The notes: generated by a model not told the origin, from the letters alone. A DNA stretch of 64,000 nt from Oceanispirochaeta sp. (GCA_963666275.2 CAXXOA010000001.1:2144001-2208000), one strand, 5' to 3'; shown: positions 38,747-62,723, numbered from the stretch's first letter. Translations and numbers: made by a program.

Positions 38747-38895
38747 AAATCCTCCAATAATTGTTTACATTTACGAGGTTTTATAATATACACATGTTTA
38801 TATTATTACAATAATGTGAACAAAATTTTATTTTTTATTTGTGCTGAAAACTAATCTAGCTCGTGGTACAGTTTAAAGGTATGGGGTCAAGGTCA

Positions 38896-39545
38896 CCCCT
38901 GCCCTAAGGCCATCTTATCCGCCTCATAATTGGCATTAATCCGATCCATCCGGTTCATCTGCCCTGGCATCTCTTGCCTGCCGACTTGAGGCGGCGCAAA
39001 ACTCTGCCCACCGGCAGGCTGCCCCATAAAAGGAGACGCCCCGGAAGCAGCCCCCCGGCTCATTCCTCCCGGATGGGACAAAGTATCAGGGTTCCAGACA
39101 GAACCAGCCTGATTCTGCCTGACAGCTTTCACCGCGGCCGGTTTCCCATTGCGAAATGAAACCGTATTTCCTTGCCCTGAGAGTCCCTGAGTGTTTGGCT
39201 TGCGCAATGTCAGCCGGGAGGGAGGGGGAAATCCTTTCCCTGAAAGAGAATTACCTTTTACGGCTGTTGCAGTTTTCTCAACGAGTGTTTTTCCGGAGGG
39301 ACTTGAACTTGTGGAACCGGAAGAAATTGAAGCTTCAGGAAATACCAGATTCTCCACCCGGGATCCTGCGGCCTGAGGTTTCAATGCCTGAACACTATTC
39401 CTGGAAGGATTGATCCTGTACCCCAGGTTGCGGTAACCCTGACCGCCGAAGGAAGCGGTTGCCAAAGGGATCCGTTTGCTAACCCGGGGAATTCTGCTTA
39501 TTGGCGCTGCCTTTGGTGACGTCATACCGGGCAACGCCCTCCATT
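38896..39545 (-). repeat. Copy 4 (longest, about 650 bp) of the 3' region of the tape-measure-position gene; no cassette follows
   Basis: Matches 48276-48910 (plus a short match to about 48993-49002). ORF 38893-39549 reproduces AAPISRIPRVSKRIP...ANYEADKMALGQG and then stops. Confidence 0.92.
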
Positions 39546-39650
39546 CCACCTACTTACTCTATAGCTTTTGCTATCAGCGGTTGCTTCATAAGATCCAATT
39601 TACCTGCAAACCATTAGGGTTGTCTGGTACAATGCCTTTCTTATGATCAA

Positions 39651-39736: not shown

Positions 39737-40252
39737 CTAATCGTTATAGACAATCAGTTCTCGATCTGTCACATCAATAATTGATTCACTATCAGCATCA
39801 AAATAGTAAACAAGTCTGTAAGTGTCTATTGTTTCTTTTCTGAAAGGGGTATCCTCTGAAGTTATTACAGAAAGAAAATCAACGTGCATATCTTTAATAA
39901 ATCCTGACTGATTCCTTAAGTATTCATTTTCAAACATGGAAATAATTTTTATATCAACAAGACTCTCAACTCCATTATCAAGATGTCTGGTCATTACTAA
40001 AATAGAGCATTTTTTATAAACCCTACGATACCCTGAAAGGTCACTTTTTACATCTCCAACCGTAAAAGATCCAAAATCATTCAGAAAATTAGTGAAATCA
40101 CCAGAGATTTCCAAGCCGATAAGGGAAGTGAGACCTAATGTTTCTCCACTTTCTATAATCGACTTAAGCTTTAATTCCAAGTCCTCTACTGTCAAACTGA
40201 ACAGAAAATGGGTTATTAATAAGAACAGGGTAATAAAAGATATTTTTTTCAT
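39737..40252 (-). CDS. Exported putative immunity protein (cassette 3)
   Basis: Signal peptide MKKISFITLFLLITHFLFS; directly downstream of the M23 effector; AT-rich. Confidence 0.65.
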   Translation of the reverse strand: MKKISFITLFLLITHFLFSLTVEDLELKLKSIIESGETLGLTSLIGLEISGDFTNFLNDFGSFTVGDVKSDLSGYRRVYKKCSILVMTRHLDNGVESLVDIKIISMFENEYLRNQSGFIKDMHVDFLSVITSEDTPFRKETIDTYRLVYYFDADSESIIDVTDRELIVYND

Positions 40253-40263: not shown

Positions 40264-41472
40264 TTACTGTATATCCGTTGGATCAACGTAATAACGATTA
40301 TACCGATTCAAAACATCTGCATCTGGAGTGTCTACAATAGAGGCATTATCTCTATCCACATAACGCACTTCCATATGAAGATGTGGTCCAGTACATGCCG
40401 TTCCTGTATCTCCCGCATTGGCAAGATGATCCCCAACTTTAACAGGATCTTTATCTTTAACTTTTATTGAACCTTTCTGAAGATGAAATAGATTAAACTC
40501 ACCCCCATCCTCCAAAGTAATTCTTATAAAATAACCCAATTTCTTATTATGTTTAGCCTCTTTCACAACCCCTTCCACAGGCGAATACACAGGCTGCCCA
40601 ATCGTCTTATTCTGATTATTTTCTCTCCAAACCCAATCCTCACCAGCATGGGGATACGAAGCATCATAAGGATCTGTTTCTGCCAAGAACCCACCGCCTT
40701 CAACGCGCTTCCACCCCGGTTCAAACTGCTTGTAATACTCCGCAACCTCATCAGGCAGTTTTATCCGCCTCACTTCATTTTTCGCCAAATTCTCCCTCAA
40801 ATCCCAATACCACCTATCCATATCGTGGATATTATCCGGATTCTTTGTTCTGAATCTCATACCGGCTTCCGTCATCAATCCTATAACATACTCATCCGTC
40901 AATTCAGCCCCATCCATAGCTCTTTCCAGAATTTCTGTCAGACCTCCCTGAATGGCATCTTTTCCGATTGTTTTCGTTCCATTATAGGATGACATAATCT
41001 CTCCATAAGAGTTCCGCAAATGACCGCCTCCATGAAACTCCAAATAGCCATCATCCGTTAAGAACCAATAGTTATTACCGTTTTCATTATTCGGTAGGAT
41101 ATTCTTCTCGTCAACATCAATAGCCAAATTCAGAAGAAAATTAACTTTGGGGTCAATTGTTTGCTGATAATGGGGACCAAGCTCCTCACGCACGATAGCG
41201 TCTGTGGGCTGAGGTATATCAAGCCCCAAAAGAGACATCCATTTTTTGGATAAATTGAGAACAGTCCGCAGTTGATTATAATCATAAGATTCGGATTCAT
41301 GTATAAAAGCGTTCAATCCGGTCCTGTCAAAATTGGAGGCAATAATCTTTATTTCATTTAACACAGTCTCTTTAAACTTTCCGGGCCTATTCCCATTTAG
41401 GACATCATGAAGAGTAGAAACAGCATTCACCATCATTATTTGAATATCTAATCTCGAATATCCGTCAACCAT
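40264..41472 (-). CDS. Putative CIS effector 3: shared N-terminal domain + C-terminal M23 peptidase
   Basis: HAGED (HxxxD), VYSPVEGVV, FHL and GDTG..TGPHLHMEVR (HxH). The N-terminus resembles those of 43948-44751 and 46543-47313. Confidence 0.85.
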   Translation of the reverse strand: MVDGYSRLDIQIMMVNAVSTLHDVLNGNRPGKFKETVLNEIKIIASNFDRTGLNAFIHESESYDYNQLRTVLNLSKKWMSLLGLDIPQPTDAIVREELGPHYQQTIDPKVNFLLNLAIDVDEKNILPNNENGNNYWFLTDDGYLEFHGGGHLRNSYGEIMSSYNGTKTIGKDAIQGGLTEILERAMDGAELTDEYVIGLMTEAGMRFRTKNPDNIHDMDRWYWDLRENLAKNEVRRIKLPDEVAEYYKQFEPGWKRVEGGGFLAETDPYDASYPHAGEDWVWRENNQNKTIGQPVYSPVEGVVKEAKHNKKLGYFIRITLEDGGEFNLFHLQKGSIKVKDKDPVKVGDHLANAGDTGTACTGPHLHMEVRYVDRDNASIVDTPDADVLNRYNRYYVDPTDIQ

Positions 41473-41483
41473 AATCAGTCTCC

Positions 41484-42305
41484 TTATATCCCAAATATCT
41501 TTGTAATATGCTGGGCGACTTGGATCTTCTCATCTTCCGTTCCGTACATCATTTCTTCTTTAAAGTGATCCACAAGTTTCTCTTTGACTTCTACCAAGCA
41601 CTCCCGATACTCTTCCGTAGTCATTTCAATAACCTTACCTGACGGGCTTAAATACCGGTACATTTCAATAGGTTCGGATTCTGTAAAATCTTCCAGATCT
41701 TTATCCGACGCATCCTGTTCTGCAATCAGTTCTTTATTCTTGAAGACAAGATCATCCTGTTTCCATATCTCAAATAAGTCGCTATCTTCCGGATTATGTC
41801 CTGTCTGTCCTTCCAGTTTATAGGCTTCTTTTTCCGCTCCCGACACATCTTCCCGATAGGTCAGCCGCTGTCCTTTTTGGTTCTGCCTGACATGCTCTAC
41901 CTCATGCAGCAGGAGGGCTTCTCCTTCTTCTGTATGAGGGGCATAACTACCTGAGGAAAAATAGATATCCTTTCCGAAAGTCAGAGCATCCGCTCCAGCT
42001 TTGTGGGTGATTTCTTCCGCATAGGGGCCCGTGTGGATTTTCACTTCGGAAAGGTCTTTTCCATAAGTCAATAAAAAGAGGTTGATTAAAGCTGTATCCG
42101 GCGCAAAAATATGGTCATAAACCTCTTTTTTGGCTTCATATGAAGTGATCAGGCCATCTGGTTTAAACTCTTGATCCGGGTTCTGCATTCTGGAGTTATT
42201 GTTACCTGTCTTCTCTATTACATTAAGATAAGCCCCATTTGCCAATTCAAATAGATTCGTGAATTTATTATGCCAGGAAATTGTTACTTCTTGATTACCA
42301 CTCAA
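41484..42305 (-). CDS. DUF4157 (eCIS core domain) protein, paralogue 3
   Basis: DLSEVKIHTG...GADALTFGKDIYF..G.YAP.T.EG..LLLHEVEHVRQ; the TTG start overlaps the stop of the repeat-copy ORF. Confidence 0.88.
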   Translation of the reverse strand: MSGNQEVTISWHNKFTNLFELANGAYLNVIEKTGNNNSRMQNPDQEFKPDGLITSYEAKKEVYDHIFAPDTALINLFLLTYGKDLSEVKIHTGPYAEEITHKAGADALTFGKDIYFSSGSYAPHTEEGEALLLHEVEHVRQNQKGQRLTYREDVSGAEKEAYKLEGQTGHNPEDSDLFEIWKQDDLVFKNKELIAEQDASDKDLEDFTESEPIEMYRYLSPSGKVIEMTTEEYRECLVEVKEKLVDHFKEEMMYGTEDEKIQVAQHITKIFGI

Positions 42306-42380
42306 CTTTCTACCCTCTTGATATCTTCAACAATATTATGAACATCAATAGCAGTATATTTTTTTCTTTGGCTTACACTT

Positions 42381-42750
42381 CCCCCGGCATGCCCCACCGA
42401 ATGACTCTGCGTCTTGGCCAGCATCCTCTGCTCTCCATACTCACCCTGCCCCAAGGCCTGCTTATCCGCCTCATAGTTCGCATTAATCCGGTCCATCCGA
42501 TCCATCTGCCCCGGCATCTCCTGCCTGCCGAACTGAGGCGGCATAAAGCCCTGCCCTCCGGCAGGCTGCCCCATAAAAGGAGACGATCCGGAAGCAGCCC
42601 CCCGGCTCATTCCACCCGGATGGGACAAGGTCTCAGGGTTCCAGACAGAACCAGCCTCATTCTGCCTGACGGCTTTTACCCCAGCCGGTTTCCCATTGCT
42701 AAATGGAATCGTATTCCCTTGTCCTGAGAGTCCGGGAGTGTTTGGCTGTC
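42381..42750 (-). repeat. Copy 3 of the tape-measure 3' region (inside ORF 42302-42835, which has a variant C-terminal tail)
   Basis: Matches about 48214-48582; reading frame intact; ends ...SVGHAGGSVSQRKKYTAIDVHNIVEDIKRVES. Confidence 0.92.
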
Positions 42751-42883
42751 CCACTACCAGCTTGGGCGAAGGGGTAAAACTTTTTCGGGAAAGTGAACCT
42801 CTTTTTTTTGGCAAAATCCCCGCAAGATGTTTCAAGTATGGGGGTAATCCTCCTGTTAACCGATCATTTGAATATTTTTAATT

Positions 42884-42985
42884 GCGGGGTCGGGCTATAC
42901 GTTTCAATTCGCTTAATCGGTACGCTTTTCGGACTACCTCCGGGCCGCCCTGCGTACCTGGCTCATTTTCACTACTATCCCTTTT
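42884..42985. other. GC-rich structured element at a cassette junction
   Basis: Nested stems GGTACGC (42919-25)/GCGTACC (42952-58) and CGGA/TCCG, with flanks GGGCTATA...TATCCC, inside AT-rich DNA. Confidence 0.4.
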
Positions 42986-43013
42986 TAGTGTTAATTTTTT
43001 ATTTACCTGAAAA

Positions 43014-43178
43014 TTACTTCTGACTAAGAAAAGCTCTGATACTGGATTCAAAATCAGGTAATTCCCATTTTATCGCCATGTCTAAAGGAGTTTCTCCATT
43101 ATTATTTTCTTTCTTAGAGAAAAGATTATCCTCTACTAGATATTGGAGTATTTCATTGTTTTCATAGCCTACGGCAAA
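43014..43178 (-). pseudogene. Start-less C-terminal remnant of an ankyrin-repeat gene
   Basis: Translates FAVGYENNEILQYLVEDNLFSKKENNNGETPLDMAIKWELPDFESSIRAFLSQK*; overlaps the last codons of 43169-43951 in another frame. Confidence 0.6.
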
Positions 43179-43951
43179 CCTGCAACATATACAACATATT
43201 TTGCAGGATAGTAATTACCAGTAGACCCAACTCTAAAAAATTCGGTCCGATCATTATTGATTTTGTAAGCAGAGACAGCAACTGAATACAGTCCTTCAGC
43301 TATTATCGATTCTGTAATCATCAATTGATCACTTTCAACATTTCCCAGAATATCGTCATAATCAGTAAAACCCACAAATAGAGAATCTGGTAAACTAATG
43401 CGATTATCCTTTATCCCAATAATTGAAAAACTCTTATTGTTGTCCACTGATTTAAAAAACAAACTATAAAAGTCTACATTAGGAATATTATTAGTCCATA
43501 CAATTTCCAAGTTAGCGGAATCATTACGTTCCGTAGGATAATCAGTAAGCTCTATCTCATTATATATAAAAATAGTATTTGTCTCTATTTTATGTTTAGA
43601 AATAATAAAACTATCAAAACTTCCATATATAATTTTGGGTGAAGTAAGAGTATTTTCTGGATGTGAATATTGCCAGATTGGAAAATCTGGAGAAACATCA
43701 ATAGTTAAATCTATTATATCATTTTCATCTATTTTGACAGAAAAGCTATTGTTTTTATCCGTCTTTACATCGCACCCAGAGAATCCTTGTGAATTCTTTA
43801 CTCTGTATGAAATATGCAATGGGAAATCTTCAACATTTCCATAAGTTTCTACAGTCCCTTTGACAGTTGTGAAATTGCAACTTAGTAATATTAGAGGGAA
43901 TAATACAAATAAATATTTTTTCATATTAAAATCAAACTTGTCATTCTTCAT
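43169..43951 (-). CDS. Lipoprotein, putative immunity protein (cassette 2)
   Basis: MKKYLFVLFPLILLSC lipobox; ATGA overlap with effector 2; AT-rich. Confidence 0.7.
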   Translation of the reverse strand: MKNDKFDFNMKKYLFVLFPLILLSCNFTTVKGTVETYGNVEDFPLHISYRVKNSQGFSGCDVKTDKNNSFSVKIDENDIIDLTIDVSPDFPIWQYSHPENTLTSPKIIYGSFDSFIISKHKIETNTIFIYNEIELTDYPTERNDSANLEIVWTNNIPNVDFYSLFFKSVDNNKSFSIIGIKDNRISLPDSLFVGFTDYDDILGNVESDQLMITESIIAEGLYSVAVSAYKINNDRTEFFRVGSTGNYYPAKYVVYVAGLP

Positions 43952-44751
43952 TTTATAGACGGCGCAGCCCCAGAGATTGCGTCAACTCCTTGATATGGAA
44001 AGATAATTTTTTTCAGTTCATCTTTTGATAATATTTCAGTCAAAGCATCCGCCATTAAATCATGATCATTAAATAATAATCTTTTTGCAATTTCGCTATC
44101 TGTAATCCTAGTCCATTCAAAATCTGGTTGATTCAAAGCGGCACCTTCTCCATCCCCTGGTAAATATTGTTCAAGAGTCCAACCTGTTATAGCGGTTTTG
44201 TTTCTATTAGAATATACTGTAATTCTTAACTGCCCCCATCCACCTTCTATTGCATCGGTAATACTGTGAGCTTTTGTACCAGCTCCAGAGTCATCAATAC
44301 CAACAGGTAAGCATCCTTCAATTACCCGTGCAATGACTGGATATTCTGATTCTATTACTTCAGAAGGGAACTGGAGCCTTGTATTATTATTTGAAATATT
44401 TTGGTGCCTAACATATGGATTCCCATATGAATCATTAAAATATTGTATTAACCCTTTTGTTGGTAAATCGCGCATAGAAACATCGCAAGGATTTGATAAC
44501 TTTAAGTAATTTGATTGAGCTGGATTAATACCAATAAGATGTAACCAATACACACAAACTTTCTGAATCTCATTTAATTCATGATTTCCATATTTAGAGA
44601 ATTCTTCGAAGAAATCATTAAAATTGAAATTCTTGAGCTTACCTTTTAACTCTTTATTATTCGGGTTCTCTTCTTGCCCTCCAAAAATTTCCAAAATGGA
44701 TCTATATGTTGATTTGGCAAGGTCTTTAATCTCATTTTCTTGATTCCCCAT
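43948..44751 (-). CDS. Putative CIS effector 2: shared N-terminal domain + unrecognised C-terminal domain
   Basis: N-terminal F..E..KYG..EL..I..VC..WL..I.I.P pattern shared with effectors 1 and 3; located between a DUF4157 gene and a lipoprotein gene. Confidence 0.72.
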   Translation of the reverse strand: MGNQENEIKDLAKSTYRSILEIFGGQEENPNNKELKGKLKNFNFNDFFEEFSKYGNHELNEIQKVCVYWLHLIGINPAQSNYLKLSNPCDVSMRDLPTKGLIQYFNDSYGNPYVRHQNISNNNTRLQFPSEVIESEYPVIARVIEGCLPVGIDDSGAGTKAHSITDAIEGGWGQLRITVYSNRNKTAITGWTLEQYLPGDGEGAALNQPDFEWTRITDSEIAKRLLFNDHDLMADALTEILSKDELKKIIFPYQGVDAISGAAPSIK

Positions 44752-44802
44752 TATATCTCCTTGTAAATATCGTAGACAGTCTGTTGGTGGGATGGATAAA
44801 AC

Positions 44803-45606
44803 CTAGCTTTTAAAGATCTTCATCATTTTATTTATGACTTCAGTTTTCTCTTCATCAGAACTGTACATCATAGATGTCTGAAATTGGTCTTCAAGTTTTT
44901 CCTTTATGATCTTTAATGAGCTTTTATAGTCTTTTTCTGACAATTCATGGACTCTTCCGGATTGACTTACATAGCGATATGTCAAAGGTTCATTGTGAGA
45001 AGAGAAATCTGCCAAGTCTTTATCAATAATATCCAGTCCATTCGTCAAATCCTGATCTTTAAAGATAAGATCCTTCTGTTTTTGGAGATCAAACAGTTCT
45101 CTATTCTCAGTATCGATATCTGATAAACCTTCCTGACTATTGGCCTGTTTTTCTGCCTTATCGATATCTTCTTTATATATGTGACGATCCTGTCTACGAT
45201 GCTGCTCAACATGTTCAGCTTCATGCATCAGCAATTGTCTGCCGTATTCAGTATCCGGAGAAAAGCTTCCGGATGAAAAATATATATTCTCACCCATTGT
45301 CAATGCATCTGCACCAGCCTTGTGAGTGATCTCCTCGGCAAAAGGACCTGTATGGATTTTCACATGAGACAGATCACTTCCATAACGGATGAGAATCTCA
45401 TTTATCAAAGAGCTATCAAGCGCATGTATTCGGTCTAATCGCTCTTTTTTCATTTCATAGAGACTTATCAAACCTTCAGTTCTTAGCTCATTATCCGGAT
45501 TCTGCATTCTAGAGTTTTTGGTTGTTGCATCGCTAGATGGTAACAGATAATGCATGGTTACCAGTTCAAGAAGATTTATGAATTTTCCATAAGATTCTTG
45601 TCCCAT
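44803..45606 (-). CDS. DUF4157 (eCIS core domain) protein, paralogue 2
   Basis: DLSHVKIHTGPFAEEITHKAGADALTMGENIYF...LLMHEAEHVEQ. Confidence 0.88.
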   Translation of the reverse strand: MGQESYGKFINLLELVTMHYLLPSSDATTKNSRMQNPDNELRTEGLISLYEMKKERLDRIHALDSSLINEILIRYGSDLSHVKIHTGPFAEEITHKAGADALTMGENIYFSSGSFSPDTEYGRQLLMHEAEHVEQHRRQDRHIYKEDIDKAEKQANSQEGLSDIDTENRELFDLQKQKDLIFKDQDLTNGLDIIDKDLADFSSHNEPLTYRYVSQSGRVHELSEKDYKSSLKIIKEKLEDQFQTSMMYSSDEEKTEVINKMMKIFKS

Positions 45607-45689
45607 ATTATGACTCCCTGTTTAAATCATCCAAGACATCATAAATAAATACACTTTTAGTATTTAGTCTTCTTGATCCAGTTCCCTCA

Positions 45690-45973
45690 GCATGCCCCAC
45701 CGAATGACTCTGCGTCTTCGCCAGCATCCTCTGCTCCCCTTGCCCCAGTGCCATCTTATCCGCCTCATAATTCGCATTAATCCGGTCTATCCGGTTCATC
45801 TGCCCCGGTATCTCCTGCCTGTCGACCTGAGGCGGCACAAAACCCTGCCCAGCGGCAGGCTGCCCCATAAAAGGAGACGCCCCTGAACCAGCCCCCCGGC
45901 TCATTCCGCCCGGATGGGACAAAGTATTAGGATTCCAGACAGAACCAGCCTGATTCTGCCTGACAGCTTTTAC
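45690..45973 (-). repeat. Copy 2 of the tape-measure 3' region (covers most of ORF 45608-45922, which has a variant tail)
   Basis: Matches about 48220-48512 with an in-frame 9-nt deletion (EYG); ends ...SVGHAEGTGSRRLNTKSVFIYDVLDDLNRES. Confidence 0.92.
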
Positions 45974-46016
45974 TGAGAATCATAAAATCCATATTAGTGG
46001 AGAATTCGAAGTGTTT

Positions 46017-46553
46017 TTATTTTAGCTCTGATAGTTGATCATGAAGAGAATGCCATCTATTATCTGCCAAGTCATGCTTATCAACCCATTGTAAAGTTTT
46101 TTGAATTGAAGCAATCTTCCAAAATGGATCTGAATAATCAAGTATTAATAAATCTCCGGTAGATTTGGATAAATAATATTTTCTAGAAAAGATTAATGAT
46201 TCTTTAGAAAAGATATAATCTTCGACATTTCCTAATGTCTCAAAATTTACAGTAACAACACAGATTTCCTCTTCTATTGGTTCCATTAAATTAATATTCA
46301 TTTTCATAGTTTCAATATTGGTTATTTTAAAATGACTAGTTACGACATGAATACTGTTTTTATCTCCTGGTGGAATAGCTATATCTGGGTGATAATAATC
46401 AACAACTGTATAATAATAATCAATGCCGGCTTCAAGCCTTTTATATATATGATTAGACACAATTTTTTCAGCCTGAAATTCCTCACCACTATAAGAGAAG
46501 AAATTAGTAAAAACTAAGAAAATCAAACCAAATAGTTTACTCTTAAAATACAT
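46017..46553 (-). CDS. Exported putative immunity protein (cassette 1)
   Basis: Signal peptide MYFKSKLFGLIFLVFTNFFSYS; overlaps the effector 1 stop. Confidence 0.65.
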   Translation of the reverse strand: MYFKSKLFGLIFLVFTNFFSYSGEEFQAEKIVSNHIYKRLEAGIDYYYTVVDYYHPDIAIPPGDKNSIHVVTSHFKITNIETMKMNINLMEPIEEEICVVTVNFETLGNVEDYIFSKESLIFSRKYYLSKSTGDLLILDYSDPFWKIASIQKTLQWVDKHDLADNRWHSLHDQLSELK

Positions 46554-47313
46554 TGCTTCTCCTTCTATAATATTCTATTGAAACTTCCGTATAATCTGTT
46601 CTGTTTTTATAATATGATTCTAAGTAATCAGATGTAAATCTTACCCCATTAGGATTATCATCAGAATGTAGTAATGCTCTACGGCCGGACTCTCCTGTTA
46701 TTATAGCTGCATGACCTTGTGTTTTTCCTGTTTTTGGATTTGTAGCACGCCAGACTTTTATATCTCCTGGTTGAGGCTCATCAACTTTCTCTAAATCAGG
46801 ATTATTTCCTATTTCGCCAGTTCTGTAGATTGAAGTATCATTTGCATATGCTATAAACTCAGAACAGTCAACTTTTATTGGTTTTTCAGGGACAATCATG
46901 GAACCATTATATTCCCCATCATAACCGGTTCCATAAGGAGTTCCTAATAATTTTTCACCCCTTTTTATTGGATTAATATTATCTATATCTTCAACAGGAA
47001 TATCAAAGACTTTTTTTTGCCCAGACTCTTCTCTTAAATATTGCAACAACTCTTTATGCATATTTACAGGATCAATTCTTAATATAGCCAACCATTTTTC
47101 ACAAACTGTATAAATACTCTTCAATTCATCTTTTCCATAGGAACTTGACTCTCTGATAAAATTATTCACATTGAAATGATTGATAAATCGTCCCAATTCA
47201 TTTCTGCTTTCTTGTGGAAAACTCCCGGGCCTTTTTCCTTCAAAAACATCTTTAATCGTGAAATAAGTAAATATTGCCAATGACCGGGTATCAAACTTTG
47301 TCAGTTCACTCAT
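46543..47313 (-). CDS. Putative CIS effector 1: shared N-terminal domain + NlpC/P60 (CHAP-like) cysteine hydrolase
   Basis: LGTPY, VDCSEF, PQPGDI, GHAAII and LLHS match the papain-like NlpC/P60 Cys-His pattern. Confidence 0.8.
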   Translation of the reverse strand: MSELTKFDTRSLAIFTYFTIKDVFEGKRPGSFPQESRNELGRFINHFNVNNFIRESSSYGKDELKSIYTVCEKWLAILRIDPVNMHKELLQYLREESGQKKVFDIPVEDIDNINPIKRGEKLLGTPYGTGYDGEYNGSMIVPEKPIKVDCSEFIAYANDTSIYRTGEIGNNPDLEKVDEPQPGDIKVWRATNPKTGKTQGHAAIITGESGRRALLHSDDNPNGVRFTSDYLESYYKNRTDYTEVSIEYYRRRSNVF

Positions 47314-48143
47314 TACAGGATTCTCCCATCAAATAACTTAACCAGATTATTTATAGTAGCGTTTCGTTGATCCTCACCACTGTATCGTATCTCATCTTCA
47401 AACTTTTCTTTCAGCCTGGAAAGAATCTCTTTCAAACAACTCTGATACTCTTCTTTCGTCAATTCATGAGTACGACCGGATAAACTATTATACCGATATA
47501 TTACAGGATCATTACTGGTCGTATACATTTCAAGATCCTGCTCTACCGCATCAAGTCCATCATTAAGATCCGTATTCTTAAATATCAAATCATTCTGTTT
47601 GAATCGTTCAAAAAGATCTATATCATCGAAATGACTGCCACTCAGACCCTCCTGATTGAGAGCCTCCAGCTCCGATTTTTCAAAATCTTCCCGGAATGTT
47701 AAGTTTTGGCCCTTTCGGAATTGATTTACATGCTCTAATTCATGCAGAAGCAGTTCTTTTCCCTTTTCCGTTTGAGGAGCAAAACTACCTGATGAGAAAT
47801 AGATATCATTCCCCATAGTTAAAGCCTCTGCACCTGTTTTATGTGTAATCTCTTCAGCATAAGGTCCAGTATGAATTTTCACATTTTCCAAGTCTAACCC
47901 ATATAAAAGATAAATGTTATTTATTAAAGAGACATCCAATGCGAAGACACGATCCAACCTATGTTTTTCCTGGACCTTTGCAGTGACCAAATTCTCAGTT
48001 CTTAATTCACGATTAGGATCAGGCATTTTAGGATGAAAACTTAATGCTTGTTCTGAAACACCGATATATGATCCGATAGCAAGTTCTACAGATGTAAGAA
48101 ACAGATTAAGACTGGAAAAAATTACTTCCCGTTGACCTCCCAT
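47313..48143 (-). CDS. DUF4157 (eCIS core domain) protein, paralogue 1
   Basis: DLENVKIHTGPYAEEITHKTGAEALTMGNDIYF...LLLHELEHVNQ; the ATG abuts the TAA of the large upstream gene. Confidence 0.88.
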   Translation of the reverse strand: MGGQREVIFSSLNLFLTSVELAIGSYIGVSEQALSFHPKMPDPNRELRTENLVTAKVQEKHRLDRVFALDVSLINNIYLLYGLDLENVKIHTGPYAEEITHKTGAEALTMGNDIYFSSGSFAPQTEKGKELLLHELEHVNQFRKGQNLTFREDFEKSELEALNQEGLSGSHFDDIDLFERFKQNDLIFKNTDLNDGLDAVEQDLEMYTTSNDPVIYRYNSLSGRTHELTKEEYQSCLKEILSRLKEKFEDEIRYSGEDQRNATINNLVKLFDGRIL

Positions 48144-51100
48144 TTAAAACTCCCTCTGTAAATCCTCAATCACATCATCAATAAAAACAGTTCTATTTGT
48201 TTTTCTGATTTCACCCCCGGCATGCCCCACCGAATGACTCTGCGTCTTCGCCAGCATCCTCTGCTCTCCATACTCCCCCTGCCCCAGTGCCATCTTATCC
48301 GCCTCATAATTCGCATTAATCCGATCCATCCGATCCATCTGCCCCGGCATCTCCTGCCTGCCGAACTGAGGAGGCACAAAGCCCTGCCCACCAGCTGGCT
48401 GTCCCATAAAAGGAGTCGCCCCGGAAGCAGCCCCCCGGCTCATTCCTCCGGGATGGGACAAGGTATCAGGATTCCAGACAGAACCAGCCTGATTCTGCCT
48501 GACAGCTTTTACCGCAGCCGGTTTCCCATTCCTAAATGGAATAATATTCCCCTGTCCAGAGAGCCCGGGAGTGTTTGGCTGTCGCAATGTCAGCCGGGAC
48601 GGAGGTGTAAAATCTGTTGCGGAAACAGAACTACCTTTTACGGCTATTGCAGTTTTCTCTATGGGATTGGTTCCGGAGGGAATTGAACTTGTGGGACCGG
48701 AAGAAACTGAGGCTTCCGGAAATACCAGATTCTCCACCCGGGATCCAATAGCCTGGGATTTCAAAGCCTGAACGTGGTTCCTGGAAGGATTGATCCTATA
48801 CCCCAGGTTTCGATAGCCCTGACCACCGAAAGAAGCGGTTGCCATAGGGATCCGTTTGCTGACCCGGGGGATTCGGCTTATTGGCGCGGCTTTTTGCGGC
48901 GTCATACCGGACAAAAGAGAGGGAGCCGAAACTCCCTGACTTCCAACAGTACGGGTCATGGCCTGTTTTATAGGGCTCCGCATAGCGGAAGGAACGCCCT
49001 CCCACTGGCCGGAAGCTGCAGAAGCAATCAGAGGGATTAACTCCTCTCTCGGGAGAATCAATTCAGGTGTTACACCGCCCTCTTCATAAAAGGTATCTGC
49101 CACAGCCTGTATGACCTCACTCTGTTCAGGAACAAACGTGGTGATCGGAGGAATCACCATATTTGTTCCAGCTTTAATCTGGGACACACCAGAGACTTTT
49201 CCTGAGGCAATCATACTCTGCTGTTTTTCTATTGAGGATATACCGGAAGTACCCAGTTTACTCTCCAGCCGGTTTTTCAACAGATCAAACTCATCCCCGG
49301 TAAAAGCCTGCGACTCCCACTGTTTCACCGCCTCAGCGCTGACAGTTTCACTCAGCCCCGCCTTGCGGTAGACCGCCCTCACTTCTTCCAGCTGAGCCCG
49401 ACTCAAAGGACCGGCCCCCTCTGAGGGAACCGACAGAACAGCCAGAAGATCTCCCGTCAGGGGGAGGACTGTTTCGGGGAGGACAGCCGGCAGGGTCTCT
49501 TCGCTGGTGCCTCTTACAGAACCGCCCTTTTCCAGGACCAGTCCGGTTGAAACGTCCAGAGGTTTGTACAGGCTCTCACGGGGAACCGACTTCACCGGGG
49601 CGGCCATAAGGGCGGCGCTGTCCAGGACTATTCCCAGGGACTCTTCAAAATAGACCTCTTTGGAGGCTATATTCCCTGCATCGGGGCTCTTCCTGTTTAT
49701 GGCATCCACCGAACGGACCAGGTCGCCTACGGTCATCCCTGTACTCATCTGTACCGTCCGGTATTCAGCCAGAGCGGATGACAGCTTTTTGTTAAACCCC
49801 TTCCGGTCCACAGGGGGAATATTCAGTTTTCCGACGGTTTCTTTCAGAGAAGCAGCCTCTCCTTCGGTCAGCTTTGAAGCCGCAGAGGCTTTCTCCAGGT
49901 CTGCTGACTGAAAGAAATCAAATTCCTTTGGAGATCCTGCTTGTCCGAAGGGCTTTTTCCCCTGGCACAACTCTCCCAGAGACACTTTGCCGGTCAGAAC
50001 CGCATCGGACTGCTTCCCTGTTTTCCCCAGACCACTGTTCCAGGCTTCATCCAGAACAGCCGTATCATCCAGTGTCGTATCCTGCAGCAAAGGCAGAACC
50101 GCTGAGATAAAGGGCATCACATGACCCAGTTCTTCACCGGACACTTCTTCACCTTTCCTGTCCAGCCAGGCCTCCGCTTCGGGAGTCAGATCAGAGGCAA
50201 TGGCATCCCGGTCTTCTTTAATAAAAGGATTAAGAGGAAGCTCTATCACCTCCTCTCCCGCACTCAGAATCTCTCCGGCCTGCTTATTAGTTAGGCCGCT
50301 CTCTTTCAGCCGGGCAAAGGCTCCCAGAGTCAGACTGGCCGCTGCGGCCTCTTCCCGTTCACTGCGGTCAGCCTGAACCAAGTCTCGGGTCTCGGTGCTT
50401 CCTTCTTCCAGAATTTTCACACCCTTCCCCAACTTCTCCCGGTACACCTTTTTCACCTCATCCGGTGTTCCCTGGGGAAGGACGACTCCCACAGGGGAGG
50501 TTCCCTTCAGTTCAGCTTCCACCCTCTTCCAGGCGGCATCCGGATCGTTTTTTACAGCCCCGTAGAGCTCTCCCTCCAGGGTGTAGTAGTACTCTTCCTC
50601 TTCCTGTACCAGTAACAGAGCGGTATCAAATATAACCGGGCCGTCCAGGGTAGAGACCATCCGGATCTCCCTGGTTTGACCTTCCGGCTCGGCGGTAATG
50701 CCCCCTTGCCGGCCGCTTGTCTCATCCACCATAACCCAGTCGCCCTCTTTGTTCAGAGCGCCGAACCAGCCCTGTTTCTCCACCCGGTAGTTGGGGTCAT
50801 ACTTTTCCCGGTTCCAGTCAAAACCGCCTTTGTCACTGGTCCGGTCAAACCGGAGCCGGGCTTTTTCTTTGTTATAGGTTTCGCTGACGCTGCCGTCTCC
50901 ATAGAGGTAGATCCGGGATGAACCTGTTTCGGCGGCAGAGTTTTTCTTTATTCTATTCCGGCGCATTCCGGCGGGTTTCAGATCTTCCAGATTCCGGCCC
51001 AGGCTCTCCAGATGTTTTTCTGTTAACACAGTCATAGCCCCGGTGGTTCCGGCAAAACTCCAGAGCATCTGCTGGCTGCTGCGGTTCAAAAGCATATCTT

Positions 51101-51362
51101 TCCGGAAGGCATCGATCCGTTCGGAATCTCTTCTTCCTCCGGGGAAGAACTCATCGGGGTTGAAAAACACAGAGTCCTGTTCTGCCTGGCCGGAAGCCAC
51201 GAGCTGGGACTCTATACTGTGCCGGGCCTCTTCTTTCCGGGCCTCCCCTTCGGGGCCGTCCAGACTCAGACCTTCCTCATAGAGATCAAAGGCCTTCTGA
51301 ATCTCTTCGTCCTTCTTTGTATAAGAGTCCTTTGAAAAATAGCTCAGCAGTTCGTCAATCAT
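48144..51362 (-). CDS. Large protein at the tape-measure position of the CIS locus, with a repeated/swappable C-terminus
   Basis: About 1070 aa, directly after the chaperone/frameshift pair. ATG 51362 follows AAGGGGTG (the ORF is open to 51407). Its low-complexity P/G/S/Q C-terminus is duplicated three times downstream. Confidence 0.65.
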   Translation of the reverse strand: MIDELLSYFSKDSYTKKDEEIQKAFDLYEEGLSLDGPEGEARKEEARHSIESQLVASGQAEQDSVFFNPDEFFPGGRRDSERIDAFRKDMLLNRSSQQMLWSFAGTTGAMTVLTEKHLESLGRNLEDLKPAGMRRNRIKKNSAAETGSSRIYLYGDGSVSETYNKEKARLRFDRTSDKGGFDWNREKYDPNYRVEKQGWFGALNKEGDWVMVDETSGRQGGITAEPEGQTREIRMVSTLDGPVIFDTALLLVQEEEEYYYTLEGELYGAVKNDPDAAWKRVEAELKGTSPVGVVLPQGTPDEVKKVYREKLGKGVKILEEGSTETRDLVQADRSEREEAAAASLTLGAFARLKESGLTNKQAGEILSAGEEVIELPLNPFIKEDRDAIASDLTPEAEAWLDRKGEEVSGEELGHVMPFISAVLPLLQDTTLDDTAVLDEAWNSGLGKTGKQSDAVLTGKVSLGELCQGKKPFGQAGSPKEFDFFQSADLEKASAASKLTEGEAASLKETVGKLNIPPVDRKGFNKKLSSALAEYRTVQMSTGMTVGDLVRSVDAINRKSPDAGNIASKEVYFEESLGIVLDSAALMAAPVKSVPRESLYKPLDVSTGLVLEKGGSVRGTSEETLPAVLPETVLPLTGDLLAVLSVPSEGAGPLSRAQLEEVRAVYRKAGLSETVSAEAVKQWESQAFTGDEFDLLKNRLESKLGTSGISSIEKQQSMIASGKVSGVSQIKAGTNMVIPPITTFVPEQSEVIQAVADTFYEEGGVTPELILPREELIPLIASAASGQWEGVPSAMRSPIKQAMTRTVGSQGVSAPSLLSGMTPQKAAPISRIPRVSKRIPMATASFGGQGYRNLGYRINPSRNHVQALKSQAIGSRVENLVFPEASVSSGPTSSIPSGTNPIEKTAIAVKGSSVSATDFTPPSRLTLRQPNTPGLSGQGNIIPFRNGKPAAVKAVRQNQAGSVWNPDTLSHPGGMSRGAASGATPFMGQPAGGQGFVPPQFGRQEMPGQMDRMDRINANYEADKMALGQGEYGEQRMLAKTQSHSVGHAGGEIRKTNRTVFIDDVIEDLQREF

Positions 51363-51415
51363 ATTTTCACCCCTTTGTTCCCGCTCAAAAACGATCCTCA
51401 CACTCACAAGGATCT

Positions 51416-51622
51416 CTATCTGGTTTGGTCTGCCCGAAGGGCTTCTACATAGTTCCTGGTATCAGAATTGATCCGGTTGTTGATCTTTTCCAGCTCAGCA
51501 AGCCAGCGCCGCCGTTCGTTCCGGCTCATATCCAGGACATCCCGTCGGCTCCAGTGAAAGTAGTAGGCCAGGTATGCCGTCTCCCCGTAAATATCTCCGG
51601 AAAGACGGCTTATACTTCCCCC
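51416..51622 (-). CDS. DUF6760-like tail chaperone extension, probably made by -1 frameshift from the upstream gene
   Basis: ETAYLAYYFHWSRRDVLDMSRNERRRWLAELEKIN motif; no convincing own start; lies in the -1 frame after GGGGGAA. Confidence 0.7.
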   Translation of the reverse strand, partial: GGSISRLSGDIYGETAYLAYYFHWSRRDVLDMSRNERRRWLAELEKINNRINSDTRNYVEALRADQTR

Positions 51623-52341
51623 GGGAGACTCAACTCCACCCGGTTCCTGTTCCCGCAGGAACAAAGGTCTTCCCTATCCCGGATCACTCCGTTATTCAGC
51701 TCATTAAAAAGGTCTACCAGAAAAGCAAAATCCGTCGGAGAGAGTTTGGTAATCACACTGTTATTGATGGACCTCTCAGATCCCAGTTTTTTCACCGTCC
51801 GGGTCAAAAGCCCCACATAAAACCACGAAGGGTTCTCTCTTGTTCTGGGATCCCGGTAAAGAGTCAGGAAATCCCGGCACCGGGCCATTGCCATCTCACC
51901 CCGCACTTTCGACCCCATCTCCGGTTTTAATCCGCTCCCATGGGGTAAACGGAAAGGGCATCTCTCTTTAATCTCATCTACAGCTGTATTCGCAAAAAGA
52001 GAACTGACCGCCAGATCCCTTTTATTCCCGCAGACCGGACATCGGTAGGAGATCTGTTCCCCCTCATTGCGGCTGTTAAAGAGCAACTGGAGATACACAA
52101 AATCCGCCTCGTACAGATCCTCCAGAGTCTCAGCGGTCACTGAGGATAAACTTCCCAGAGAGGAGATCAGCCGGGACAAAAGTTCCAGATCCCTCTGCCG
52201 GTCGTTAAACCGCACACTGTCCAGCTCCTGCAGCACAAGTTCATCTTCCGCTGTGGCATCCCTTAAAAATCCTGTTCTATGGATCACACCATCCTTATCT
52301 TTCAGCCCTAAAGGCAGAGTAAACTCACATCCGGCAGTCAT
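51610..52341 (-). CDS. Phage-like tail assembly chaperone (tandem duplicated domain)
   Basis: FTLPLG..D.DG..HR.G..R.ATAEDE...LYEADF.YLQ..FN and a second copy FRLPHG...LSPTDFAFL..LFNELN; CPVC and CSC motifs; ends ...LPGEV. Confidence 0.75.
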   Translation of the reverse strand: MTAGCEFTLPLGLKDKDGVIHRTGFLRDATAEDELVLQELDSVRFNDRQRDLELLSRLISSLGSLSSVTAETLEDLYEADFVYLQLLFNSRNEGEQISYRCPVCGNKRDLAVSSLFANTAVDEIKERCPFRLPHGSGLKPEMGSKVRGEMAMARCRDFLTLYRDPRTRENPSWFYVGLLTRTVKKLGSERSINNSVITKLSPTDFAFLVDLFNELNNGVIRDREDLCSCGNRNRVELSLPGEV

Positions 52342-52532
52342 GACAGCTTCTCCAGTTTTTGTTCAACGTATTGATTCATTTTTTCGATAGTTTCCAAATC
52401 CAGAGGTTCAAAGGCAAACTCTCTGTAAATATCATCCAGAATCGCCCGGGCCTGATCAGGATAGGGAAAGTCGATTAATTCAAGGTCACCGGTATTTCGG
52501 TTCACTTTCAGGTATTTTCTGTCGTCACTCAT
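52338..52532 (-). CDS. Small hypothetical protein in CIS operon
   Basis: 64 aa; overlaps both neighbouring genes at start and stop. Confidence 0.6.
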   Translation of the reverse strand: MSDDRKYLKVNRNTGDLELIDFPYPDQARAILDDIYREFAFEPLDLETIEKMNQYVEQKLEKLS

Positions 52533-52900
52533 CAGTTCATCTCCAATTGCCTGAAACGGGGGGCCGATTCATCCCGATGTTCTGTCGCCGAAGGAGCCGG
52601 TTTCATAACCTCTTCTTCCTCATGAGAAATTTCGATCCGCCGGCCGCCTCTTTTCCAGACGACCCTTCCGCCTTCCACGACAAAATCCCGGAATTCCGCA
52701 AAATCATATTTATCCTTTAAATAGAGCATTAAAGAGGTAAAATTGGGGATTTCCGGATCTGCTGCAGAAACAGAAGCCTGAGGAGAGGCCGAGGAATTGG
52801 AACCTTTTTTGTTATACTCCTCATAAAGCATACAAAACCCATCGGTCAGAACCTCACGGCTCAAGTTGTTCAGCCCGGTCATTAAGCTATCATTATCCAC
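52532..52900 (-). CDS. Hypothetical protein in CIS operon
   Basis: GTG start at 52900 after GAGGAG; ends ...RFRQLEMN. Confidence 0.6.
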   Translation of the reverse strand: MDNDSLMTGLNNLSREVLTDGFCMLYEEYNKKGSNSSASPQASVSAADPEIPNFTSLMLYLKDKYDFAEFRDFVVEGGRVVWKRGGRRIEISHEEEEVMKPAPSATEHRDESAPRFRQLEMN

Positions 52901-53621
52901 AAAGAATCTCCTCTTCAAATTTGACCCAGCTCCCCTCCGGCCGGGAGGGGACGTAAGGCAGATTATCCATGCCGGAAGGATTTCCCTGACATCCAAGAAA
53001 AATGACATCCTCACGCTCTGTCAAATCCCAGTCAACATGAGAGAATACACAGTTCAGAAACACACAGCGATCCAGATGGGAAAAGGCAAAAAACGTCCCG
53101 GAGATATGACACCCCATAAACAGGGAATCGCTGATGTTCGTGTGTTTCAAACCAGTGATACCTGAGGGATGGTCTGCCGCAAAAGAACTATTAACAGCGC
53201 AGATGGAGTTCAAAACACCATGGCTGATTTCCGGTTCGATCATGGCAAAATTCTTGAGCCGCACCGAGTCCATTTTCAATCGGGGTCCAGAGCATCCTCT
53301 GAAAGAACCACCATAAAAAGAGGTGTTTCTGATATGAGAACCTCGGAGCTGAGTACTGATAAAAGAACTGTTCGAAAAAGAAGAATCTGAAATCACCATC
53401 AGCTGTAAAGAGCACTGATCAACTACCCCGTTGCAAACCAGGGAGGAGCAAATAATCCCCTGATCCATAACAGCCCGGTACAGGGCAGGCATATCCAGTT
53501 GTTTCCCGGCAAACTTCAACTCGGGAAAAGAACCTTCATTCATTTGCCAGTTTTTCAGCAGAGTACTGTTTATAAGCTCATCCCTGATAAGAGTAAGACA
53601 GCCGGATCCCTGAAAAATCAT
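52893..53621 (-). CDS. Pentapeptide-repeat protein
   Basis: SSFSN-SSFIS-TQLRG-SHIRN-TSFYG-GSFRG and SLFMG...CVFLN-CVFSH periodicity. Confidence 0.7.
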   Translation of the reverse strand: MIFQGSGCLTLIRDELINSTLLKNWQMNEGSFPELKFAGKQLDMPALYRAVMDQGIICSSLVCNGVVDQCSLQLMVISDSSFSNSSFISTQLRGSHIRNTSFYGGSFRGCSGPRLKMDSVRLKNFAMIEPEISHGVLNSICAVNSSFAADHPSGITGLKHTNISDSLFMGCHISGTFFAFSHLDRCVFLNCVFSHVDWDLTEREDVIFLGCQGNPSGMDNLPYVPSRPEGSWVKFEEEILCG

Positions 53622-53827
53622 TTTTCAGTTTCTCCGTAAATATGAACCTTTTCGTTATCATCTTCTTTGTAATACTCAGAGGTTTTTTCTCTCTGCTGCA
53701 CAATTCCCAGGGCTTCTTCAAACTCTTTTGTCATTTCCAGACAACTTGAACCGTCCACTCCCTGAACATGAATCTGAACATCGCCGTTTTTATCAATTGT
53801 TATTTCCAGTTCCTGCTTTTTTGCCAT
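53618..53827 (-). CDS. DUF2997 family protein
   Basis: LEITIDKNGDVQIHVQGVDGSSCLEMTKEFEEALG...TSEYY. Confidence 0.85.
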   Translation of the reverse strand: MAKKQELEITIDKNGDVQIHVQGVDGSSCLEMTKEFEEALGIVQQREKTSEYYKEDDNEKVHIYGETEK

Positions 53828-53847
53828 AATCTATCCTTCTAACGCCC

Positions 53848-55380
53848 TTATACCATTTCCAGTTTCCGGGCGCTCTCTTCGTCTTCCATAAAACTGATTT
53901 CACTGGCCTTACGGGCTCTTAAATCCGCCCAGTTCCTGATATTCTTAATCTCCTCACTCATGGTCTGAGAGAGAGGGATCATGGAGCCCACCGAACCATT
54001 CAAGATCTCCTGGTCGATATCACAGCCCTTATCGAAGGCATCGTATAAGGCACTGATAACGACTTCTTCAATTTCAGAACCAGAGTACCCCCGGCATAGT
54101 CTGGAGAGATGCTCCAGATCATAGTTTTCCGGGTTCCGGTTCCTTTTATTCAGATGAATCCTGAAAATCTCTTTCCGTTCCTGATGATTGGGCAGATCGA
54201 TGAAAAAAATCTCGTCAAAACGCCCTTTTCTAAGCAGTTCAGGGGGCAACTGAGAGATGTTATTGGATGTGGCCACCACAAAAACGGGACTGGTTTTTTC
54301 CTGCAGCCAGGTTAGAAAAGTACCGAAAACACGGGCGGAAGTACCCCCGTCAGTCATCCCGGATGATCCCATACCGGAAAACCCCTTTTCCAGCTCATCC
54401 AGCCATAAAATGGAAGGCGCGATGGATTCAGCCGTCTGTATGGCTTTCCGGACATTCTCCTCACTGCTTCCCACCAGGCTGGAAAAGACTTTTCCCACAT
54501 CCAGACGCAAAAGGGGAAGCTGCCACAGTGAGCTGACGGCCTTGGCTGTCAGAGACTTACCGCAGCCTGGAATACCGATCATCAGAATTCCCTTTGGTTC
54601 GGGCAGACCGAAATCCCTGGCCTCTTTGGTAAAGGCTTTGCTCCTTTTATTCAGCCACTGCTTCAGATTTTCCAGACCGCCGATTTCGGCCATCTTTTCA
54701 TGGGAACGGTAGTACTCCAGAACCCCGGATTTCCGGATAATCTGTTCCTTTTCCGAAAGGATCACGGAAATATCAAACTGGCCGGTTTGCACCAGTGATT
54801 TGGCAAACACATTTTCTGCTTCTTCCGCGGTCAGCCCCAAAGCCGCTTCCACGACTTTTTCTTTCTGCACGGAACCGTCCCATAAGGCGGCCTGATTGGG
54901 GAGCGAACCTGTAATCTCATCAATTATTCTCTCCAGTGTTGCCTTATCGGGCAGATCGAAATCTACAATGGTAACATCTTTTTCAATGTCCAGAGGAACT
55001 TTCAGAATGGGGGACAGGAGAATCACATTTTTCATGCTGATTTTCAGTTCCCGGCTGATATCCCGGAGTTTCCTCACCACCACGGGGTCATTCAGAAAGG
55101 GATGGAAATCCCGCAAAAGGAACAGACCATTCACATCACTCTCCAGAATATGATCCAGAGCTTTGATCGGCTCCCGCAGATCAGCGGCGCTGCTGCCGTC
55201 GTCCGATTCCAGCCCCTTCGTAACAGACCAGATAAAAAATCTCTTACTTCTGCCATGGGCAATACCCTTCAGAGTCTCTTCCACCCGTTTCTCTTCACTG
55301 GATATGATATTGATAAGGGGATACCTGGCCCGGATCAGGACCTCGATTCTCTCTTTAATGCTTAAGTTTTCTGCTGTCAT
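53848..55380 (-). CDS. Ycf46-like AAA+ ATPase
   Basis: [48 protein letters not shown] and [13 protein letters not shown] motifs. Confidence 0.9.
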
Positions 55381-55413
55381 AAATTTGATTCCTTCTTTGT
55401 ACCCGATTCATGT

Positions 55414-55968
55414 CTAAATGCCTGTTAAAACTAACTCACCATTGGTGTGAATAATGATCTCTTTTTCCACCAGACAGGTTCTTCTCTTCCTCTTCATCAA
55501 CCTGCCGTTTTCCGAAAGGGCTATAATCCTCTGATTCCCCGACCCGGCCCACTCTCCTTCCGGCGGGAGATCCGATCTGTAGGGACCGTCAATCAGCAGA
55601 TCAATCCGAGACAGGAGTTCCCGGGATCCCGGAAGTATTTCCTTTTTCAGATCACAGAAGGAGAATCCACTATACACGATAGAGTTCAGTCCCCTTCCGG
55701 TACACTCCCTGATCAGAGGAGAGAGTTCTCTGGCCTGTAGAAAGGGTTCTCCTCCGGAGATTGTGATTCCTTCCACATCTGCCTTCCTGATCAATGAAAG
55801 CAATTCCTCCAGTTCGTAATCCCGGCCACCCTGAAGAGACGCCGCCGATGGATTGAAACACCCGGTGCAGTTGAGAGGGCACCCCTGGGTCCACAGAACA
55901 AACCGTTTCCCGGGGCCGTTTACAAGAGATGTATCCAGTATGTCATGAACCCTGATAGCCACACTCAT
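55414..55968 (-). CDS. Radical SAM / 4Fe-4S single-cluster protein (NrdG-like activase)
   Basis: VNGPGKR..WTQGCPLNCTGCFNP (CxxxCxxC), ISGGEPF, DLLIDGPY and GSGNQR motifs. Confidence 0.88.
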   Translation of the reverse strand: MSVAIRVHDILDTSLVNGPGKRFVLWTQGCPLNCTGCFNPSAASLQGGRDYELEELLSLIRKADVEGITISGGEPFLQARELSPLIRECTGRGLNSIVYSGFSFCDLKKEILPGSRELLSRIDLLIDGPYRSDLPPEGEWAGSGNQRIIALSENGRLMKRKRRTCLVEKEIIIHTNGELVLTGI

Positions 55969-57014: not shown

Positions 57015-57026
57015 GAGAACTCCTTT

Positions 57027-57647: not shown

Positions 57648-57656
57648 AACAACCTC

Positions 57657-60789: not shown

Positions 60790-60797
60790 GGATTTCC

Positions 60798-61175: not shown

Positions 61176-61183
61176 ACTCCCTC

Positions 61184-62713: not shown

Positions 62714-62723
62714 CTCAACATCC

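Follow-up and report, generated by a model that had tools for sequence, protein, structure and literature searches.

How are toxins with unrelated tails brought to one and the same injection machine? The question is raised by a 64,000-nucleotide stretch of an Oceanispirochaeta sp. genome (GCA_963666275.2, CAXXOA010000001.1:2144001-2208000; the whole stretch is referred to as the window), in which three genes for predicted effectors, E1, E2 and E3, lie at the end of a complete contractile injection system (CIS), each directly behind one of the genome's only three DUF4157 genes. All three proteins begin with the same domain of about 85 residues. From sequence comparison we argue that this domain is probably a loading handle, bound by the DUF4157 protein for loading of the toxin, and that the variable tip of a long CIS protein may anchor the adaptor.

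A domain shared by three predicted effectors

Local alignment of residues 1-90 gave scores of 115 for E1 and E2 (z 17), 126 for E1 and E3 (z 24) and 52 for E2 and E3 (z 5.8), and in none of the three pairs did any of 1000 shuffles match the real score. Identity over the N-terminal domain (N-domain) was 33%, 29% and 19% across the pairs; the similarity of E2 to E3 is weak by itself, and these two proteins are joined via E1. The parts after residue 90 gave z values of 0.7, 1.7 and 0.2, and since all of these lie below 2 the tails are regarded as unrelated. A preliminary description of the locus had claimed both the common N-termini and the unrelated C-termini, and the alignments bear it out on both counts, the peptides it quoted being present in the open reading frames. 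The domain of some 80 residues that it proposed does exist, but at about 85 residues and beginning at the N-terminus itself (approximately residues 1-85), before the quoted stretch. Domain profiles recovered exactly E1, E2 and E3 among the 19,058 reading frames of the genome. The N-domain is mostly acidic, with a net charge of +1 to -9, and bulky hydrophobic residues make up 33-40% of it.

The tail of E3 contains a clear M23 peptidase domain with both zinc motifs, while that of E1 combines DCS and GHA motifs with a sub-threshold NlpC/P60-CHAP match (E 0.01) and a match to a phage profile (E 1.6e-5). Because the tail of E2 matched nothing in Pfam, NCBIfam, PHROGs, PDB sequences, plasmids or phages, E2 is named an effector by context only.

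A profile search of 1.84 billion representatives returned seven matches, one of them E2. The form of the domain seen in the window (window type) comprises 10 sequences in total, the relative P0003 included, of which seven come from outside this genome and three have a known gene context; its profile had no match in the 60 related genomes searched. The tails carried by the window type are M23, NlpC/P60 and three without a known family. E3 and P0003 are 73% identical in the N-domain and 34% in the M23 domain, whereas E3 and P0014 show 38% and 74%, and P0003 and P0012 30% and 75%. Judged by these identities, the M23 tails of window-type proteins have been reshuffled independently of the N-domain. 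The relatives P0003 and P0007 share one contig of 7774 nt, which merely hints at linkage. E3 also has a middle domain of about 150 residues (window 40720-41190), without a family match and 59-75% identical to the equivalents in P0003, P0012 and P0014, which varies independently of both the N-domain and the M23 type.

Tip, DUF4157 protein and effector form a repeated cassette

The effector genes belong to cassettes that read, in order, the 3' end of the long CIS gene with a variable tip helix, a DUF4157 gene, the effector gene and a small immunity-like gene with a signal-peptide-like start. This 3' end is repeated three times downstream of the long gene, as arms with 85-86% identity over 370-639 nt, and full cassettes stand behind the long gene, arm 1 and arm 2. 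Each intact 3' end encodes a conserved motif and, after it, a helix of some 25 residues that differs from copy to copy; the two together are termed the tip. The GC content is 55-60% in the arms and 28-42% in the cargo genes, against 48% for the genome. The DUF4157 copies of the window are diverged (approximately 48% identity), and DNA similarity between the N-domain genes is nearly lost, the best being 71% over 85 nt with none for two pairs. The preliminary description had noted the effectors and the DUF4157 protein but had overlooked the long protein's tip, which is repeated and makes up a third part, so that the unit is larger than it described.

The same order in Treponemataceae

The DUF4157 profile led to the Treponemataceae, whose proteins came back under Treponema names and which belong to the same class as the window's genome; the window's organism is accordingly taken for a spirochaete of a different family. 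A DUF4157 gene is present in 26 of 401 genomes of the Treponemataceae, and a sheath domain in 11 of those 26. Searches of viral and genome contigs returned no relatives of the DUF4157 proteins, only one unrelated metagenome locus. The order found in the Treponemataceae is again a long protein with a tip, DUF4157, a protein with a helical N-domain, and a small gene. The long proteins are homologous to that of the window (E down to 1e-43) and have the same tip motif, and the CIS of one genome (G535) has a gene set nearly identical to the window's. The gene behind DUF4157 starts with a helical domain of about 90 residues, the profile of which also recovered 14 proteins outside its training list and 98 database proteins. 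On the Treponema succinifaciens plasmid NC_015386.1 there are three cassettes of this kind, whose annotation goes no further than hypothetical, DUF4157 or toxin type 30.

Strong matches to the Treponemataceae-type domain occurred in 26 of the 401 genomes; a partial match at a contig start (G458) was counted, while three weak ones (G396, G526 and G628; E above 1e-4) proved to be unrelated housekeeping genes and were excluded. Twenty of these 26 genomes also have DUF4157, and nearly all of the 20 supplied training sequences. One locus, L080, was too divergent and was left out of the domain alignments.

Aligned by hhalign, the two domain types matched end to end over 82 columns with a probability of 65-67% and a score of 27.2 (one alignment), as against at most 19.2 in 200 shuffles, 14.6 on reversal and no more than 13.8 with any of four neighbouring modules. 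Both types have a similar predicted layout of helices. Homology was judged probable because the position behind orthologous genes is identical, taken together with the profile alignment, and on this sequence evidence we consider it quite probable that the two types share descent. In a tree of 36 domains the window type sits on a long branch (3.18) and could not be placed.

Within a set of 15 cassettes, the conserved part of the tip follows the genome, with a similarity of 3.9-5.2 within a genome against a median of 3.05 between genomes, a pattern not shown by the variable helix, the N-terminus of DUF4157 or the N-domain; this difference appears to put the point of exchange at the tip motif. 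The variable helix tracks both ends of DUF4157 (rho 0.48 and 0.44), and the N-domain tracks the variable tip with rho 0.28. Tip, adaptor and handle may therefore be described as one travelling unit, although linkage alone could explain the tracking.

Another layout has the tip as a gene of its own, about 65 codons long, between the DUF4157 and effector genes. It lies inside the CIS operon in locus L073 and away from the CIS in L071, L072, L075 and L078. Five stand-alone tip genes with effectors and long runs of immunity-like genes occur among transposases in L071-L072 and L096 (G328:C1:788000-817000), on a different replicon from the CIS, and fragments of CIS tube genes are found in such islands (L096, L089). 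In L075:9518-13030 a DUF4157-tip-effector-immunity unit adjoins a gene for a D5-like primase, and the region has the look of phage origin.

Predicted fold and family searches

From the 10-sequence alignment, AlphaFold2 predicted helices at residues 6-24, 34-46, 49-56 and 61-77 (pLDDT 86, pTM 0.75; pLDDT of at least 70 in 78 of 86 residues), and as modelled the N-domain is a compact four-helix bundle. Fold searches with two domain models gave no match at E 0.001, with best Z scores of 5.8 and 6.1; the match at Z 5.8 (rmsd 3.1, 71 residues aligned) was an unrelated helical protein, and no toxin membrane localisation domain stood within the top 50. The models of the two types had 10 of the top 50 chains in common, which shows only that both are similar generic bundles, and the ESM Atlas gave no usable match for either.

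The preliminary description had likened the domain to the MIX and FIX markers of type VI secretion systems (T6SS) and to the leader sequences of Photorhabdus virulence cassettes (PVC), and here it has to be corrected. At E 0.1, no Pfam or NCBIfam family was matched by more than 2 of the 36 domain members, and there was no MIX, FIX, RIX, PIX, WHIX, LXG or WXG100 among the matches, a test that covers only domains having a model in those libraries. Neither tssL nor tssM (PF09850, PF14331) was found in the window's genome, which is 97% complete, and by this measure the system is not a canonical T6SS. PVC leaders are disordered, whereas the N-domain is predicted to be folded as four helices, which argues that it is not a leader of that kind.

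Tails and immunity-like genes

From 144 candidates we scanned the tails of 46 representatives, approximately one for each C-terminal cluster. Eighteen had a tail above the Pfam cut-off, in 12 families that take in wall hydrolases and nucleases (M23, NlpC/P60, C39_2, Amidase_2, VanY, Pesticin, Endonuclea_NS_2, AHH, Tox-SHH, Ntox30, Ntox44 and SAA); this figure includes the Treponemataceae-type relatives, and the window type alone accounts for two. The remaining 28, E2 among them, have a tail without a Pfam family above the cut-off. The proposal that the domain could serve as a marker to mine further toxins thus proved sound, since it heads these families, its tails are reshuffled and further toxins were found with it. 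One such protein (L057:12388-13494) has the N-domain and a tail matching serum amyloid A (PF00277, E 3e-19), and is followed by a lipoprotein-like gene; a serum amyloid A tail is a possible, unrecognised type of antibacterial toxin.

By a simple hydrophobicity rule, a signal-peptide-like start was seen in none of 44 N-domain proteins in the fetched loci. The same rule was applied to the gene next downstream. Behind nuclease-type effectors 0 of 8 passed, while behind papain-like or YkuD-like effectors 4 of 5 passed, the fifth scoring 2.39 against a cut-off of 2.4, and all three immunity-like genes of the window passed. Since the effectors lack a signal and the downstream signal follows the type of tail, the pairs have the appearance of antibacterial toxin-immunity pairs exported without Sec, and each downstream gene would encode an immunity-like protein placed where the toxin acts. 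The effectors are likely to be antibacterial toxins directed at rival bacteria.

Organisation of the locus

Table 1. Features of the array and of the adjoining CIS, by position in the window
Feature	Position	Strand	Description
CIS genes	51416..63912	-	DUF6760, tail chaperone, pentapeptide, AAA ATPase, radical SAM, VgrG-like hub, CIS tube-LysM, tube, sheath, vWA, FHA, CIS13-like, Tail_P2_I, DUF1257
Long CIS protein	48144..51407	-	1087 aa; ends in tip (48147-48338): NxYExD...VGHA motif, then variable helix
DUF4157 (eCIS_core) protein 1	47313..48143	-	276 aa; stand-alone; HExxH intact
Effector 1 (E1)	46543..47313	-	256 aa; tail likely an NlpC/P60-type peptidoglycan peptidase, DCS at 149, GHA at 200; Pfam match below cut-off
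E1 N-domain, residues 1-84	47062..47313	-	four helices; from alignment and predicted structure
Immunity-like gene 1	46017..46553	-	178 aa; signal-peptide-like start; no family
Arm 1	45608..45973	-	copy of long-gene 3' end, 85% DNA identity; different tip helix
DUF4157 protein 2	44803..45606	-	267 aa; stand-alone
Effector 2 (E2)	43948..44751	-	267 aa; tail without known family, probably periplasm-acting (downstream gene with lipoprotein-like signal)
E2 N-domain, residues 1-80	44512..44751	-	from alignment
Immunity-like gene 2	43169..43951	-	260 aa; lipoprotein-like signal
Arm 2	42302..42835	-	copy of long-gene 3' end, 85% over 42313-42806; third tip helix
DUF4157 protein 3	41484..42305	-	273 aa; stand-alone
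Effector 3 (E3)	40264..41472	-	402 aa; N-domain, middle domain and M23 peptidase, HAGED at 275, HLH at 364
E3 N-domain, residues 1-88	41209..41472	-	from alignment
Immunity-like gene 3	39737..40252	-	171 aa; signal-peptide-like start
Arm 3	38893..39549	-	terminal copy of long-gene 3' end, 86% over 639 nt; stops before VGHA motif; no cassette behind

The gene set is of the extracellular CIS (eCIS) type, with tube, sheath, baseplate J, gp25, spike, AAA ATPase and DUF4157; a second tube, a second sheath, baseplate J, gp25 and spike genes continue beyond the end of the window (L109). The DUF4255 terminator gave no match, and a 183-aa gene without any match occupies its position. The long gene is taken to be the tape measure solely from its position after tail chaperone-like genes, and its product matched no tape-measure profile. 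A vWA-zinc-ribbon membrane gene, FHA, DUF1257 and two lipoprotein-like genes lie in the CIS operon (window 59623-63912; L109:1923-3783) and also in genomes G535 and G393. Judged from the vWA, FHA and lipoprotein-like genes, the particle may be membrane-anchored rather than released.

No supported joint between arms was found in the contigs of one sample. At the left edge of the array (window 38830-38890) there is an element of 50-60 nt with two copies at 92-94% on contig C2, which accounts for a loose contig end near 38840-38890. On the opposite strand of the same CIS, 8-17 kb beyond the window end (L109:10319-19169), lies a second effector set. It comprises a pair of spike OB-fold genes, one of which has a PAAR-like part, a C39-like peptidase of 819 aa, a pair of immunity-like genes, and a 141-aa remnant in which the N-terminus of the C39-like peptidase is repeated. 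As this set lacks the four-helix domain, the machine appears to have two loading routes. Eight kb from the array (window 27873-30398) is an 841-aa lipoprotein-like protein that consists, as read by eye, almost entirely of ankyrin-like repeats.

A putative loading handle and its alternatives

We favour loading by the DUF4157 protein because the domain is shared while the tails are unrelated and swapped, because it stands directly behind DUF4157 at the end of a CIS, and because this layout recurs. The N-domain would bind the DUF4157 protein encoded just upstream, and the variable tip helix would bind the same protein and anchor it to the particle. Firing would put the enzyme into the periplasm or cytoplasm of a neighbour, and the downstream gene would protect the producer. 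The 85%-identical arms would let recombination place another tip-adaptor-effector-immunity cassette behind the long gene; alternatively, the arms themselves may be translated as short tip proteins. A precedent is Sle2 of Streptomyces lividans, a stand-alone DUF4157 protein for which co-elution is described both with Sle1's N-terminal region and with the tube initiator (PMC13277306), and a chaperone role of DUF4157 in trans has been a matter of speculation for Danov et al. (PMC11297309).

Several observations weigh against this interpretation. Homologues unlinked to DUF4157, which the preliminary description had named as counting against it, do in part occur, as DUF4157 is absent from 6 of the 26 genomes with a strong match and present in the other 20; in those six the domain has immunity-like genes around it or an insertion sequence next to it, or stands at the edge of a contig. 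The link between domain and DUF4157 is not absolute, and most of the assemblies are drafts. Orphan cassettes are common in polymorphic toxin systems. Ten of the 20 genomes with both domain and DUF4157, mostly drafts, show no sheath domain, and most of the context counts are circular, the loci having been chosen for DUF4157. The hhalign probability was 33% and 31% with two other alignments, and an HMM search with the Treponemataceae profile misses the proteins of the window; without the homology link the family amounts to 10 sequences, with context for 3. The N-domain tracks the parts of DUF4157 weakly (rho 0.17-0.25, p 0.02-0.08), for which linkage alone could suffice. All of the 33 DUF4157 proteins compared keep the HExxH-Q-E peptidase signature unchanged, which an adaptor need not do, and AlgoCIS is described as loading without need of DUF4157, a disordered leader serving the purpose (bioRxiv 10.64898/2026.05.27.728243).

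The invariant residues (H134, E135, H138, Q141 and E165) fit the HExxHxxQ-E signature, which Zhang et al. put forward as that of a peptidase releasing toxins (PMC3482391). They speak for a pro-domain, which the DUF4157 zinc peptidase would recognise and cut in trans, releasing or activating the toxin, while some other signal did the loading. This is rather improbable, as no conserved cleavage motif is visible past the domain in the 36-row alignment and the co-varying tip would be left unexplained; cleavage and loading by way of the domain can also coexist.

To about the same small extent we credit direct docking of the domain on a part of the machine (long-protein tip, spike, tube or AAA ATPase), with DUF4157 as an accessory or a separate cargo. 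In L016:1849, L055, L071:17045 and L096 the effector stands directly behind the tip without an intact DUF4157 between them, the N-domain tracks the variable tip slightly better than it tracks any part of DUF4157, and DUF4157 is dispensable in AlgoCIS. However, every cassette of the window has its own diverged DUF4157, which a shared accessory would not need, and the tip tracks DUF4157 more closely than it does the N-domain.

A role after delivery or outside the CIS, in which the bundle targets or crosses a membrane, or is some other export signal, and linkage to the CIS is merely genomic, appears very unlikely. Four-helix bundles do serve as membrane localisation domains in other toxins. The genomes without a sheath domain would fit such a role, as would the three-gene units found away from CIS genes, once beside the phage-like primase of L075. 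Yet the same domain heads tails acting in the periplasm and in the cytoplasm, it is mostly acidic and not basic, Pfam scans of its members found no membrane-localisation family, and in L073 the unit lies inside the CIS operon. That the likeness is a functionless by-product of local cassette duplication can be set aside almost entirely: the effector genes do lie in tandem, and those for DUF4157 are paralogues, but the protein pattern has been kept where the DNA similarity has nearly gone, it recurs in seven proteins from elsewhere, and the domain is predicted with high confidence to fold.

Comparison with known systems

Presumably the arrangement also has some likeness to LXG toxins with small upstream partners and to PAAR tail/co-chaperone systems. 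Among the closest parallels are systems with DUF4157 proteins. As described for the S. lividans SLP system, a stand-alone DUF4157 protein, Sle2, stands beside an effector whose N-terminal region it binds, the C-terminal domains are variable, and one member has an immunity gene (PMC13277306). Compared by description, the N-terminal region of Sle1 is a large tape-measure-like coiled coil (PMC13277306), whereas here an 85-residue bundle heads effectors of 256-402 aa, the long protein is a separate gene and the cassettes are arrayed with repeated arms. In the accounts of DUF4157/PVC-metallopeptidase toxins, Tme included, DUF4157 likewise lies at the end of CIS loci with variable toxins (PMC3482391, PMC8213781, PMC11297309, PMC11126660). 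There it is usually fused to the toxin and many toxins are without immunity genes, in contrast to the window, where separate genes encode the long protein, DUF4157 and the toxin, and where each toxin has a conserved front domain of its own, of which the accounts consulted make no mention.

The MIX, RIX, PIX, FIX and WHIX domains of T6SS effectors also define, by a conserved N-terminal domain, polymorphic classes with downstream immunity, and for MIX, RIX and PIX both necessity and sufficiency for secretion are reported as demonstrated (PMC12135965). The present domain differs in matching no such family, in a genome without detected TssL or TssM. Vibrio cholerae Tap-1 (DUF4123) offers exchangeable adaptor-effector-immunity modules behind a structural gene, although adaptor family and machine are different and here the exchange is apparently in the last codons of the structural gene, with several cassettes stacked (PMC4557670). 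The PVC and AlgoCIS leaders are, like the N-domain, N-terminal and common to the cargo of one system; they are disordered, and the N-domain is folded by prediction (bioRxiv 10.64898/2026.05.27.728243).

The literature searched yielded no study of this domain or of any CIS in spirochaetes, though supplements and eCIS databases may list such loci. The main texts of Geller et al. (PMC8213781) and of PMC12210884 do not mention spirochaetes, and Zhang et al. list the spirochaete phylum among the holders of PVC systems (PMC3482391). Known already are class-defining secretion domains (PMC12135965) and swappable adaptor modules (PMC4557670); what is new here is the domain, together with the splitting of the unit into three parts and the array of arms.

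Significance

DUF4157 is the commonest marker of CIS toxins, and its role is unsettled, with loading, release, maturation and refolding all proposed. As it is a separate gene here, in many small and diverged sets of tip and N-domain, partner specificity can be tested by swapping. The N-domain is also a new search handle for toxin tails without a Pfam family. The locus is also a sign that spirochaetes, which are nearly absent from the searched literature on such systems, have an antibacterial weapon. More tentatively, and with some doubt, we suggest that spirochaetes, gut treponemes included, may possess an undescribed antibacterial injection system built on a three-link relay from tip helix to DUF4157 adaptor to four-helix toxin handle, in which cassettes would be swapped at repeated gene ends and the relay would also travel as a free unit of three genes, one of them encoding the tip as a separate peptide. 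If this is true, DUF4157 would have one defined partner on either side in the relay, and natural triples, matched and mismatched, would be at hand.

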